Positions 42,601 to 48,600 of a stretch of DNA of 64,000 nt are shown here, in pieces. The stretch lies in NCBI RefSeq assembly GCF_054482595.1, contig NZ_CM137008.1. One strand, 5' to 3'. The position numbers were made by a program. The stretch's first letter is position 1; each line of letters starts with the position of its first letter.

Positions 42601-45600
42601 ATTGATAAAGTGAATTTCATGCATAACCTCTATACTGGATTCTTTTGGCAATTTCATTACAATGAACGTGAATATTTAAAAATAAATCGTTCTGGTATTT
42701 CAAACAGCAAAACATTTCACTTCCACTTTAATTTTAATGATTTGCGAGCTCTTTACAGCAGTTATAATAAAAATCATAAAAATGATAATCTTTATGATTT
42801 TGATAGTTTTGATAAAATGCAAAAGATATTTTTAGCGTTGAATGTATTTAAGGAAAGAACGGAAATAAATTACAGGGATTATAGAAAAGTATCAAAATAT
42901 GTAGATGATAAAGTCGATTTATTCTCTGGCATTGAACGATATTTACTGGGGGTAATTGAGAAAAATAATAGCTATAATGAGGAAAATTATGGTAATAAAA
43001 AAGACAAATATGCCAAGCTTATTTATGAAAGAAATTATTTAGTCGCTACTAAGGATCAATTGATTAATGAGAGTTTTGAATTAAATAATAAAGACAATAA
43101 AGATAAAAAAGATGTAGCCAGAATTAATGAGATTAATGAAATACTAAAGACAATAGATGGAAAACTACCAAATATAAGTGATGAGATTCTACATCTTAAG
43201 GATGAAACAGAGAGATTGGAGGAAGAGTATCAACAAGAAAATACACTTAATGATGTAGTTCAAAATATCAGGCGTTGGCTAAAAGAAAATGAAAATATGG
43301 TGAAAGCTATTAAGAAAATTGATACTAATAACATGGCGAATAAATAAACGGATCAAGTCGTTCCTGTGACAATGAGGTTATACGAAAAAGACGCTTACGC
43401 ATTAGAAATCTGGTGTACTTTAATTAAACCAGTGTCGCTGATGTGTAAGCGTCGACGTTGGGAGACGATTAAATTGTTATATCACCGCTACGCCCTTTCC
43501 AGACGGCGTATAAGAGTGCAATATGTTGAGTTTTCCGAGTGAATGGTGCATTTTATTAACCGAGCCATTTGAATAAGCCAACGCAATAAAACAGACTGGA
43601 ATAATAAGTCTGTATTTATTGTTCATCACAATCGCACTCTACGGTTTTATCCTGCTGAAATGAGACAGCCTCCAGCGTTTGTGGATGATCCTTGAACGAG
43701 AGTCATGGTCTGGTGTCAGGATTCACAAATGACCTGTTTCCTGACATGGATATAAACCCAACATAGAGTGCGGTAGTTAATCTTAAAAATCTATAGTCGG
43801 CTACTCAGCACAAAACATCATTATTGATTCTTTATAAGAAAGAATCTCGCCATCATTTTTATATAAATCACTATTAAGGAAATCCAGAAACTCTTGCCTT
43901 ACACTATAAATATTAGCTTTTTGGTCAACTAATGATAATAATATATCCTTGACACCTTTTAATTTTATATCTCTATCAGATATTGTATTAAGTGTGAAGA
44001 TGATATTACGTTTATTACAACTGGAGAACCAATATTTTAGAATATTATTCGTCCACTTTGTTGGTGTCTTAATTAGTTGCGCTGTTGTTGTTTTAACATT
44101 ATTAAATGTAGAACCACTAAAATTTGTCCCGACGCATGAAATAAAATTCATTTCTGAATTATCAAAATTACAATTCTTTATCTCACACATATCAAAATTA
44201 ACATCATGAAATGTCGAACATTTCATGTCTGCATGTGAAAATAAACATGCAATAAACGTTATATATTGCAACCTGGAATGACAAAAAGATTTATTTTTAA
44301 AGTCAAAAGAACAGGTTTTTTTGATTTTGAAGTTGTTATTGTATCTGCAATATAAAGAAATCATGTTTTTTATTAACTGATAACACCACTGTGATGATTC
44401 TGGTAATTCATTGGGGTATAAATGGAAGTTTTCATCGAATATAACCTGTGCATTATGGTTGTTTATTGATGATATATGAAAGCTATAATTTGTTAAAGCT
44501 ATGGTTGTGCTAAAATTATGGTGGTGATCAGCACTCATAAAATCAAATGTAACAATGTCGTGGTTTCCTTTCTTTTCTTTGTGATATGCGTTTAAAAAAG
44601 AAATATTTTCGATCTGTTCATCAGTTAATGTAAATGGCATTTCGTCATCAAAGAAAGCGTAATCGGCATTTGGGAGAGGAATACTCTCAATTGAGCATAG
44701 TTTTAATAAAAAAACATGAAAACAATGAAACATGTTTTTATGCATAAGAGAACTTAATCTCTGTTGTATCTTCTGTAGTTGTCCTTTAGGAAGTAAATGC
44801 TGTAAATTTGAAAAAGAGTCATCTAAAATATATTTATATGTAAAAATGTCATCTCTTGGACCATTTATTAAAAAATCGTCAGACAATTTAGAAAAACGAT
44901 TGAGATGACATAAATATTCCATTTGCTCCATGTCTATATAGTTATGGGGAACTGCGTGGTTTGGTGGTGTGCCAATAAGATTATCCATAAATCACCTTGA
45001 TAAAATTTAATAAAATCTCTTTATTTTAACCTCGACAATAAAAGCGGCTATAAAAAAACGCTCATTTTCTGATGCTGCGGTTAACCTGTGGAATGTGCCG
45101 TTAACCCCCTAAAAATTGCAAATCCAGGGTGAACACCCTGGGTTAAAATGGAAATAATGAGCTATTTTTTACAGTATTCACCGGTAATATAAGTAACACT
45201 TGTTGCTAACCTAACTAGCAGTACGGTTAATTAACAACATAGAAGTTATTGTTTTTCAAACAACTCAATATTGCACGCCGGAGGATTTATGGTCGCTAAA
45301 TTAAAACCAGATGTTTTTGTTAATACTAATCCTTTTTTAGAAGCAATGTATAAGGAGAGGCTTAGTCATAAAGGCTATTCTGATAAAATTGCTTTAAGTA
45401 TTAATGATAAGAAATATAATGTAAACTCTAAGGATATTGAAAATATTCTTGATGGCAAAGGGGATTTATTTAAAAAACGTACACTGTGGGAGTTTGTTCG
45501 CGATCTTTTTCCTGGATCTCATATTAAAGAAGTCAAAGGCTTAATTTACGAATTTGTCACGAAAGTTGATAACAAAGCCGAGGTGTTCGATAAGATTAAA

Positions 45601-48600
45601 TCGCTGGCAAAAACAGAACAACAATGGCGATTTAGTACTAAGACAGACTTTACCACAAATGAAAATAATGAAGTTATTGTGAGTAGATCCTTTAATCTCT
45701 ACACGGGGGCTACTTCGAATGATAACGAAAAAAAACAGGTTTCTTCAGAGAGATTAACGCTTGATAATTATCTTGATGATTCACATTTTGATAATTCTCC
45801 CTTGAATAGATTAACGTTTGATGATTATTCTGTAAAACTTACGACGCTGATTAAAAATAAAATTCCTATTATTAATACAACAATCAATTTATCATCGTTG
45901 TCTAAGGATGTTTTAAATTCACTAAAATATTGTAGTTTTAAGAATGTAATTTTTTCAGGAGTGATAAACAGCCCTAACCTTGAAGGTCCGGTTTTTGAAA
46001 ATTGCTATTTCGATGATTGTAAATTCAACAACATACAGCTTTATGAGACTAATGATGATACTGTGGGGTCAGGAAATAAAAAACCAATAAAAGGTATGTT
46101 TAAAGGTTGTTTTATTTCTAAATGCAAAATTGAAAATTATAGATGTGAGACGTCTAAAATCTACAACGTTACACAACCTGTAAGTATTAATGAAAAATTA
46201 GGTTCTTATCTCTTTATGCAGTCTTTTGTTCAGGATTGCACAATTCAGGGGGGATATTGTCCTGGTTCGAGTATACTTCTGAGTCATTTTTATAACTGTA
46301 CGATAGCGAAACTTGATGCTCATGGGATGGATTTTTTGGCAAACGCATTCACTAAGTCTAGTGATAACGAAGCCAGGGCGCAGGATCAGGGAACTGTGTT
46401 TAATTATTGTAATTTGAATAGTATTAATATGAAGTGTAGTCTTGGTAATGCGAGTTCCGATGAATATAAGTTTAACCCAGAAGAGTATTTTTCTGATTAC
46501 ATTGAAAGAAGATCGAGAACTCTTAAGTTGGATGATAATTTTTCTAACTGCGTAGGGAATATCGAGAAGGCTGTTAAAACTTCATTTAGCAAGCAGAATT
46601 CAGAGAATGATAATATCTCCTTTAATTATTGTGATTTGCGGAGTGCCAATTTAGACAGTTATTACAGAGAAGATTGGTGCAAAGACTGTTCTATTGATCC
46701 AGATTCAATTTATTTAGAAGATGGTGTTACACCGATAAAATACATTTATATGAATCTGGACGGAGCTATAAGTAAAGACAAAATACCTAATTTCTTAGAA
46801 AAGGTAAATGCTATCAATAGCGATATAAAAGATTTTTATAATACTGAGACAAAGATTAAGGAAGAATATAATAACGCATTTTCAGAGCTAGAGTCGTTTT
46901 TGTCTACACTTTATGTTGAAAATAAATCGTACGAGGAGAAATATCATTTTAATAATAGTAGGTCTGAATTTTTTATTTTCAAAGATATGCAATATAAAGC
47001 ACAAAATATTATTACCAATATGATAGAAAGTGACCGGATTAAGTTTATTGAATCTATCATAAATAAAATCATTCCACCGGCAGATATAAAAATGCCTACT
47101 AAAGATTCAGACAAATTTATTCGACAAAAACAACATGAGTCTCATAACCAATTTGATATTGATTATAAATTGAATTATGGTGACCTTGTCCCCCTTTTTG
47201 AAGGTGTTGAAAAAAAACAAATTGAAGCGCTAAAAATCCAATTGGAAAATATAAAAAATTTCAAAGCATATTACGACTCAGAGCTCAATAAGTTTGCTTC
47301 CGATTTTCGAAATTTTTCCAGTGCATTTGCAATTAACTGGGAGGATTTACAAAAAAACTATCAGGAAATAAATACTTCCATTAAAGATTACGATGACTTA
47401 TTGCGAGAAATTAAAGAGTTAACCATAAGTCGTAATAAATCATTAGAGGATAAAAGGACTTTATTTGATAACAAAAGGGACAATTGGAATAGTATAGAAG
47501 TGCAGGATGAAGTAAATGTATTGAATGCGAAAATTGTCGATTGTGATGATAAAATACGTTCTAAGCTTACTATTATTCGAAATAATAGACTTGAGAATCA
47601 ATATAAAGACGATAAAAACATCAGTGACGCGATGCGTAATATTCTGGATTGGTTCGAACAGTATTCCGATATTGTAAAAAATATAACCAAGGCTTAACTA
47701 TGCAGAGGGTGGATGACAGGACGAATAACGACATAATTTATTCATAGGGAATAGACGCTTACTCATCAGACACCTGGTGTTCTTTATCTCAAACCAGCGT
47801 GACTGATGTGTAAGCGTTGAAGTAAGGAGGCGATTATCGCGTTATATTCCAGCCGCGTGCCTTCCAGAGCGCAGGCAGCTGCGACAGCTCGGTAAAGGTG
47901 GTGACTTTCGGGTGAACGATCGGCTTATTGTGCGGGTCAGCGCAGAAGTAAAACACTTCCATTCCGGCATCTATCCCTGATTGAGCGCCAGCGCTGGAGT
48001 CATCGACCAGAATGCAGTTTTCAACGTTCACATTCATCGCTTTTGCCGCATGGAACATTAATGCCGGATCGGGCTTCCAACGCTGGATATCGTAGCCGCT
48101 GAACAGTTTTTCCGGGAAGTAGTGCAGCATGTTGAGCTTACCCAGCGAATGCTGCATTTTGCTGACCGGACCGTTAGAGACGACGCACATCGGCACGTTA
48201 ACGCTCGCCAGCAATTCGTTCGCGCCTGCGATGTCCGCAAGTTCGGTATCAAACAGACGCGCTACTTCTGCGCGGTAAACGTGCTCGGCATCGGCCTGGA
48301 CCATCGTCACGCCATGTTCTTTACTGATGATGTCGATGATTTCGTAGAGTTTTACGCCTTTAAAACGGGTAAAAATCTCCTCCAGGTCAACGTTAATGCC
48401 AAATTCCCTGAACATCGTGACATAGGCGCGAGAGCAAATGACCTCGCTATCGACCAGCGTACCGTCGCAGTCGAAAAATACCGCTTCTATCTGGGACATG
48501 TCTTTCCTTTATCGTTAGTTTAACGTTTTCGTCATGCCAATTCGCATGACGCAATCGTTGCCGTATAAGCAAATACAATGAAAAAAAGTTATCTTCAGCC

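Follow-up and report, generated by a model that had tools for sequence, protein, structure and literature searches.

The 64,000-nucleotide (nt) window analysed here is one strand of an Escherichia coli chromosome (NCBI RefSeq assembly GCF_054482595.1, contig NZ_CM137008.1; positions are those of this whole stretch) and contains pstSCAB-phoU, an AT-rich islet, and then yieH-adeP. Two large paralogous genes of the islet, gene 1 (espY5-like) and gene 3 (espY4), are each followed by an inverted repeat shortly after the stop codon, which raises the question of how such a structure came to occupy the same position twice and what it does there. An earlier sequence-only reading of the region proposed that promoter, gene and 3' structure had been duplicated or mobilised together as a cassette, and that the structure could be a terminator, an mRNA stability element or a recombination site. 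On the evidence of the aligned DNA, the two copies are shown to have arisen by tandem duplication of a segment reaching from inside cbrC to inside yieH. The hairpin formed by each repeat is quite possibly a 3' untranslated region (UTR) stem-loop without a U-tract that serves the two espY transcripts as an end-forming and stabilizing element.

The first copy of the hairpin (HP1; 43390–43453, plus strand, 64 nt, covariance model score 90.2 bits) lies between gene 1 and the convergent gene 2, and the second (HP2; 47754–47817, plus strand, 64–65 nt, 103.4 bits) lies between espY4 and the convergent yieH. Both inverted repeats are thus confirmed where the sequence-only reading had placed them, and the distance of about 40–60 nt it gave from the paralog stop codons agrees with measured values of 42 nt for HP1 past the gene 1 stop and 56 nt for HP2 past the gene 3 stop. 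HP2 also sits 17 nt from the stop codon of yieH. HP1 reads GACGCTTAC...GTAAGCGTC and HP2 reads GACGCTTAC...GTAAGCGT. The repeats described earlier are real, but the stem was under-described: both copies form a 16-bp outer helix, an internal loop of 1–2 nt, an inner helix of 7–8 bp with a CUGGU/ACCAG core and a one-base bulge, and a loop of 13–14 nt. The outer helix of HP1 is completed by two G.U pairs, and most alleles keep one conserved U.U mismatch. E. coli genomes and metagenome contigs yielded 10 distinct variants, all with this same architecture.

RNA folding of the plus strand gives minimum free energies of -34.7 kcal/mol for HP1 and -33.0 kcal/mol for HP2 (z -6.5 and -5.0), far beyond the shuffled controls, with 0/200 dinucleotide shuffles as stable. 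On the minus strand the corresponding values are -23.0 and -30.9 kcal/mol (z -4.3 and -6.0). The plus-strand tails past the stem are GACGUUGGGA and GAAGUAAGGA, with no U-run in either. The minus-strand tail of HP1 is UUUUU in the window allele and UUUU in the common alleles, and that of HP2 is CUAUUCCCUAU. A terminator scan of the window called neither hairpin, and the Rfam 15 covariance models, run over 38000–52000 at E <= 1, gave no match at either one. Neither Rfam nor the papers searched yielded the hairpin itself, yet it belongs to a known kind. Just past HP1 (window 43454–43530; L003 4714–4790) there is a Shine-Dalgarno-like GGGAG followed 8 nt on by ATG in the common alleles and by TTG in the window; the open reading frame (ORF) of approximately 20 codons that begins there looks incidental.

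The homology between the two copies extends well outside the hairpins. The full paralogous 3' block of copy 1 (43380–43503, plus strand), composed of left flank, hairpin, spacer and a yieH' 3' remnant, matches that of copy 2 (47744–47868, plus strand), which reaches 35 nt into the intact coding end of yieH, with 75% identity over approximately 125 nt (blastn, E 1e-22; repeat families D2 and D5). The paralogous units are colinear along their length, with 40644–43503 aligned to 45120–47868. At the left end of each unit is a promoter and 5'-UTR block, located at 40644–40709 (plus strand) for gene 1 and at 45120–45185 (plus strand) for gene 3. These blocks are 76% identical (repeat family D3), carry the sigma-70-like hexamers GTGAAA-18-CATAAT, and are confined to the same two places per genome, a distribution like that of the hairpin. 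The core of the promoter block, ATAATGAGCNATTTTTTACAGTATTCA, is nearly invariant, and a small hairpin (CAGGGTGAA..CCCTG) overlaps the -35-like hexamer. The 5'-UTR motif TATTTTTTACAGTAT (45163–45177, also 40688–40701) is complementary at 14/15 positions to the last codons of espY4 (47669–47683), which is probably due to chance given the many similar AT-rich inverted pairs in the region.

To the right of HP1 lie three pseudogene remnants of core genes, all on the minus strand. The 3'-terminal remnant of yieH' (43469–43503) was identified by sequence identity and has a stop equivalent, TTA, at 43469–43471; the stretch 43454–43503 is identical to 47819–47868 at 34/50 positions, and the remnant matches the end of K-12 yieH at 20/26. 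An internal yieH' remnant (43515–43572) exhibits 76% identity over 58 nt to the yieH of the window (48121–48178) and 72% to that of K-12. The 5' remnant of cbrC' (43579–43742) is 70% identical over 167 nt to K-12 (L004 1005–1170, E 5e-21), and the K-12 stretch it matches comprises the cbrC start plus 18 nt upstream. The yieH'|cbrC' junction survives at approximately 43573–43578, and gene 2 comes next. A junction of this kind, within fragments of core genes, is what a tandem segmental duplication leaves behind.

The duplicated segment ran from inside cbrC through gene 2, an ancestral espY gene and the hairpin to a point inside yieH. Such a duplication predicts the order HP1, yieH', cbrC', gene 2, gene 3, HP2, yieH, which is the order found. 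Before the duplication, the place held by cbrB in K-12 was taken by gene 2, a single espY gene and the hairpin. Since the match to K-12 sets in exactly with the stop codon of yieH (47834–47836), the hairpin is island-side DNA. In strains that keep bgl-yieL-yieK to the left of gene 1 (L002 and L009), the last 52 nt of cbrC remain there with a shared breakpoint, which is consistent with a later deletion of the left-hand copy of cbrC and gene 2. The part of the cassette proposal that holds is that promoter, gene and hairpin were copied together in colinear order. Its mobilisation part is not supported, as the copied segment is larger and includes pieces of cbrC and yieH, and the element is present nowhere else. 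The yieH' and cbrC' fragments provide a clean record of islet growth by tandem duplication bounded in core genes.

The hairpin was found in 1108/5426 complete E. coli genomes, in exactly two places per genome (median and maximum) and always in this islet. Copies were sought with a 'distant' BLAST search of the 5426 E. coli genomes, plasmids and phages, and with a covariance model run over the window with filters off. There was no match among the phages, and the sole match among the plasmids was a 4.9-Mb chromosome filed as a plasmid. The covariance model, built from the ten variants, matched only the two island copies in the whole 64-kb window. Further copies beside other genes, which the sequence-only reading had allowed for, did not emerge, the genome-wide search having returned the two island copies only.

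This distribution bears directly on the proposal that the hairpin is a site-specific recombination site or cassette boundary, whether integron attC-like, a miniature inverted-repeat transposable element (MITE), or akin to repetitive extragenic palindromes (REP). An imperfect inverted repeat 3' of each paralog in the same orientation is what such a site would look like, and strand-asymmetric pairing, described below, would also suit single-stranded DNA folded into such a site. A rare haplotype, represented by one E. coli assembly (L009, Logan ERR3329175) with core flanks 97.7% identical to the window, even has deletion endpoints inside the repeats. In this assembly, bgl-yieL-yieK is followed by one divergent orthologue of gene 1 (approximately 70% DNA identity), one hairpin and yieH. 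Its hairpin (8330–8520) is a hybrid, with the left flank of copy 1 and, at 99%, the interior and right flank of copy 2; the switch point falls inside the shared AGACGCTTACTCATCAGA, and the left junction is shared with the two-paralogue strains. The most natural interpretation of L009 is that the two direct repeats recombined and the stretch yieH'-cbrC'-gene 2-espY4 was lost; the resulting junction is absent from the RefSeq complete genomes. The crossover is explained by an 18-nt identical run, and is thus an ordinary repeat-mediated deletion that needs no dedicated site. The recombination-site proposal is therefore true in a trivial sense, the direct repeats having been used in one observed deletion, but no site-specific system is indicated. 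The duplication junction lies in yieH'|cbrC' and not at the hairpin, the element is limited to two copies at one locus in each of the 1108 genomes with no true plasmid or phage occurrence, the islet encodes no integrase or transposase, and there are no target-site duplications, the homology running past both arms. A dedicated recombination or cassette site is accordingly very improbable, and this reading is already largely refuted.

Individual mobile-element candidates were also rejected. By inspection, the attC core sites RYYYAAC / GTTRRRY are absent from the arms (GACGCTTAC / GTAAGCGT(C/T)); the nearest GTT heptamers (GTTGAAG and GTTGACG) fail the attC consensus and have no complementary 5' partner. 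An integron was rejected on the content of the islet, which holds only genes 1–3, with no integrase and no array of unrelated cassettes. Elements of the REP or bacterial interspersed mosaic element (BIME) type and MITEs were dismissed on the grounds of only two places per genome, homology beyond the arms, and an Rfam REP-type model without a match.

The duplication makes it possible to ask which parts of the copied segment have been held constant. In the common alleles (L007 and L008), the 16-nt arms of HP1 and HP2 are identical at 32/32 positions, compared with 23/33 for the 33-nt interior between the arms and approximately 60% for the flanks (Fisher p ~1e-6 for arms versus flanks and 5e-4 for arms versus interior). 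The co-duplicated yieH' scraps supply a neutral reference, being identical to live yieH at 78/108 positions (72%). The simplest reading of these paralogue alignments is that the arms have been kept identical by selection. Since the duplication, both arms have remained identical between the copies while the loop, the flanks and the pseudogene scraps drifted. The arms of HP1 have been kept while the adjoining yieH' decayed, which means that yieH cannot be required for the upkeep of HP1. A sliding profile of identity along the two units is highest at the hairpin (77–80%), with other peaks at the promoter block (approximately 75%) and the N-terminal coding region (70–75%); the 3' halves of the genes fall to 35–55%. 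With the scraps as an internal neutral clock, the hairpin arms, promoter core and N-terminal domain emerge as the constrained parts, and the effector bodies have diverged faster than pseudogene DNA.

Conservation among alleles was also considered as evidence of function and rejected. Among E. coli alleles the hairpin is approximately 91–93% identical, no better than everything rightwards of 43258 (90–97%); it is level with its neighbours, and the exception is gene 1. It is thus the comparison of the paralogues that carries the case for constraint. This same levelness is what would be expected if the hairpin were a functionless relic of the duplication, its similarity maintained by occasional gene conversion or recombination between the direct repeats. 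Recombination between the copies does occur, as in L009, and HP1 looks unchanged in strains in which gene 1 is a pseudogene. A conversion tract, however, would homogenise the interior as well, and the interior is 70% identical where the arms are 100%; a single tract is not expected to leave two separate perfect blocks with a diverged interior between them. The stem substitutions described next are also biased to changes compatible with pairing. A relic is for these reasons improbable.

The strand on which the structure acts was addressed by comparing the ten distinct aligned variants. On the plus strand, 93.3% of alignment cells pair and seven pair positions have G.U variants. On the minus strand, in the mirror structure, 87.1% of cells pair, G.U occurs at one position, and seven positions depart by mismatches only. 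The plus-strand fold is the more stable in 8/10 variants (mean -28.5 against -25.5 kcal/mol). C->T changes on the plus strand account for five independent stem substitutions, and G->A for none. Substitution events were tallied by hand from the aligned variants, without a tree; approximately 8/10 of the inferred stem substitutions keep plus-strand pairing where about one third would be expected, giving a rough binomial p of ~0.003. From these patterns we infer that the hairpin probably acts as an RNA on the espY-sense strand.

An RNA stem-loop on this strand could be an intrinsic terminator, as the sequence-only reading had suggested. A stable G+C-containing stem-loop is present on both strands. 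The compact loop of about 3–8 nt typical of such terminators is lacking, as the loop here is 13–14 nt within a composite 64-nt hairpin. Because the plus strand has no U-tract, canonical intrinsic termination of the espY transcripts is unsupported.

The lack of a plus-strand U-run after the stem, together with the position of the hairpins just past the espY stops, points instead to a U-less 3'-UTR stem-loop acting as a transcript-end and stability element for espY4 and espY5, which is the reading we tentatively favour. The mature 3' end of the espY transcript would form at this stem-loop. Transcription itself would end further downstream, by Rho-dependent termination or run-off, and the stem-loop would then block 3'->5' exonucleases and so determine how stable the espY4 and espY5 mRNAs are. 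Secondarily, it could limit read-through into the convergent neighbour. Rho-dependent termination is common in AT-rich, H-NS-type horizontally acquired DNA such as that of the islet. In E. coli, Rho-dependent transcripts have been found to carry, at their steady-state 3' ends, stable U-less stem-loops that protect them from PNPase and RNase II (Dar & Sorek 2018, PMC6061677). The espY hairpins are likewise stable, located a few tens of nt past the stop codon, and without a U-run.

Several observations weigh against this proposal. The espY hairpin is much longer than those of the Dar and Sorek class, with approximately 24 bp in two stacked helices and a loop of 13–14 nt. There is no rut-like (Rho utilization) C>G skew right past the hairpins, where C/G is 0.75–0.85 in the first 100 nt; C/G exceeds 1 only from approximately 100–140 nt onward (>1.3 at about +100 to +140). 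No double (compensatory) substitutions on the plus strand were found among the ten variants, and the structural support therefore rests on wobble-compatible single changes. The plus strand of the window is both the leading strand near oriC and the espY coding strand, so that a C->T mutational bias could yield part of the G.U asymmetry. The hairpin also folds well on the minus strand, where HP1 is followed by UUUU(U). Finally, both the perfectly identical arms and the U.U mismatch, itself conserved, hint at recognition of sequence beyond pairing.

The minus-strand fold gives rise to one alternative, in which the hairpins are minus-strand or bidirectional terminators for the yieH (HP2) and gene 2 (HP1) transcripts and would keep these from running antisense into the espY genes. 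HP2 begins 17 nt past the yieH stop and HP1 approximately 350 nt past the gene 2 stop, both lie between convergent genes, and the minus-strand folds are stable, with HP1 having the U-rich tail noted above. In addition, K-12, which is without the islet, has an unrelated long hairpin (-32 kcal/mol) at the same place after yieH, and structure there may therefore matter in itself. The minus-strand tail of HP2, however, is a poor U-tract, only the HP1 allele of the window has a positive d'Aubenton-Carafa discriminant (estimated by hand), and the terminator scan called neither hairpin. Several independent substitutions moreover create a C.A mismatch on the minus strand where the plus strand has G.U. 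A role as minus-strand terminator is accordingly unlikely. The K-12 hairpin is located in the yieH-cbrB spacer (L004 431–520) directly past the yieH stop and sequesters the Shine-Dalgarno sequence of cbrB. Homology between the islet hairpins and this spacer is not significant, as 430 and 365 of 1000 shuffles score as high.

The hint of sequence recognition leads to a second alternative, in which the hairpin is a regulatory processing or protein-binding site of the 3' UTR, cut by RNase III as in lambda sib or bound by an RNA-binding protein such as ProQ, and actively controls effector mRNA decay over and above capping the 3' end. A nearly coaxial helix of approximately 24 bp is long enough for RNase III. 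The arms (32/32), the U.U mismatch, the bulge and the internal loop are conserved across paralogues and alleles, which is more than an exonuclease barrier needs. Against this, there is no known loop motif (no GGA, for example) and no Rfam family, and strong constraint on single mutations of the stem can by itself keep the arms identical. This alternative appears rather unlikely, slightly more so than minus-strand termination. A more specific form of it, in which the hairpin is a sequence-specific, protein-recognised element private to EspY4 and EspY5 and tied to a dedicated regulator of mRNA stability, processing or localisation, must be considered a speculative and distinctly improbable proposal, a shade below even the relic. 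If true, it would make the hairpin an effector-specific module of post-transcriptional control and not a generic exonuclease barrier. Under the favoured reading as a 3'-end and stability element, the conserved 3'-UTR structure would offer a handle on the post-transcriptional control of an islet of the H-NS-silenced type. More widely, the significance is modest, since E. coli transcripts commonly carry U-less 3' stem-loops, a known feature.

The islet that carries the hairpins extends over approximately 40464–47833, has about 32% G+C, and contains three genes. It is the published Z-locus (Z5211–Z5214) between phoU and yieH. Sankar et al. (2009, PMC2646131) described it as an alternative to bgl/cbrBC at this position, noting a GC content of 30%, the lack of mobility genes, the ORFan nature of its genes, and mutual homology of Z5211 and Z5214. 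A term search of that paper found no mention of the 3' hairpins or of the yieH'/cbrC' duplication junction. In E. coli PE164 (NZ_CP114128.1, L002), a hybrid haplotype combines bglH-yieL-yieK' with a complete Z-locus. It follows that cbrBC alone is what the islet replaces, and that bgl was lost from the window in a separate deletion event. Palindromes of the REP/BIME type, with sub-threshold matches to the Rfam model naRNA4, are located at 38782–38858 (in the pstA/pstB gap) and at 40403–40463 just past phoU, and the latter delimits the left edge of the island on the core side.

Gene 1 (40816–43347, plus strand; stop codon 43345–43347, alternative ATG at 40810) encodes an EspY5-like protein of approximately 843 residues and is the orthologue of Z5214. 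Its ORF is intact in the window strain. Z5214 is named espY5' and is a pseudogene in O157:H7 (PMC4048457); the same paper observed induction of Z5212 and Z5214 under an antibiotic condition. Gene 1 is often frameshifted or a pseudogene in many E. coli strains. It is hypervariable among E. coli lineages, with 55–85% DNA identity between the window and L015, L013 and L009, the C-terminal part being the worst conserved. Gene 2 (43801–44988, minus strand), convergent with gene 1, is annotated in RefSeq as a pentapeptide-repeat protein of 395 residues; the pentapeptide matches of this protein are weak only. Gene 3 (45289–47697, plus strand; stop codon 47695–47697) encodes the type III secretion system effector EspY4 of 802 residues according to the RefSeq annotation of the O157:H7 orthologue, and proteins 100% identical to its product carry the name 'type III effector'. 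As cited in a later article (PMC6313403), EspY4 was reported as a translocated type III secretion effector of enterohaemorrhagic E. coli O157:H7 by Tobe et al. (2006).

The proteins of genes 1 and 3 are approximately 31% identical, and neither Pfam nor NCBIfam gave a significant family for the islet proteins. The EspY family is extremely narrow: a search of 1.8 billion representatives returned only three full-length 50%-identity clusters, all from this locus. A contig scan of 100,044 species genomes matched one contig, an E. coli-like fragment in a 'Collinsella' metagenome-assembled genome. This 4.4-kb contig (JAIJJM010000244.1, 'Collinsella sp.', L005) carries an espY5-like fragment with 87% protein identity, hairpin 1, and downstream island DNA, and is almost certainly E. 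coli contamination of the Collinsella bin. The core gene yieH (47834–48499, minus strand), annotated as a 6-phosphogluconate phosphatase, is convergent with espY4. The islet-linked yieH is only approximately 82% identical to that of K-12, far under the identity usual for E. coli core genes, and the divergent haplotype therefore reaches into the core gene.

Compared with known systems, the hairpins resemble the lambda sib / tI retroregulation hairpin in being long, irregular, located downstream of a gene, and long enough for RNase III; they differ from it in having no antitermination context. With integron attC sites they share an imperfect inverted repeat of approximately 60 nt placed 3' of each unit, in the same orientation and with strand-biased pairing. 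They differ from attC in that there is no R''/R' core and no integrase, the units have their own promoters, only two copies exist, and the duplication junction lies elsewhere. REP/BIME elements can act as 3' mRNA stabilisers between convergent genes. Although the hairpins have no sequence relation to these elements (the naRNA4 model matches the REPs of the window and not the hairpins) and occur as two copies in one islet instead of hundreds, they share with them the form of an imperfect intergenic palindrome between genes, able to shield the upstream mRNA.

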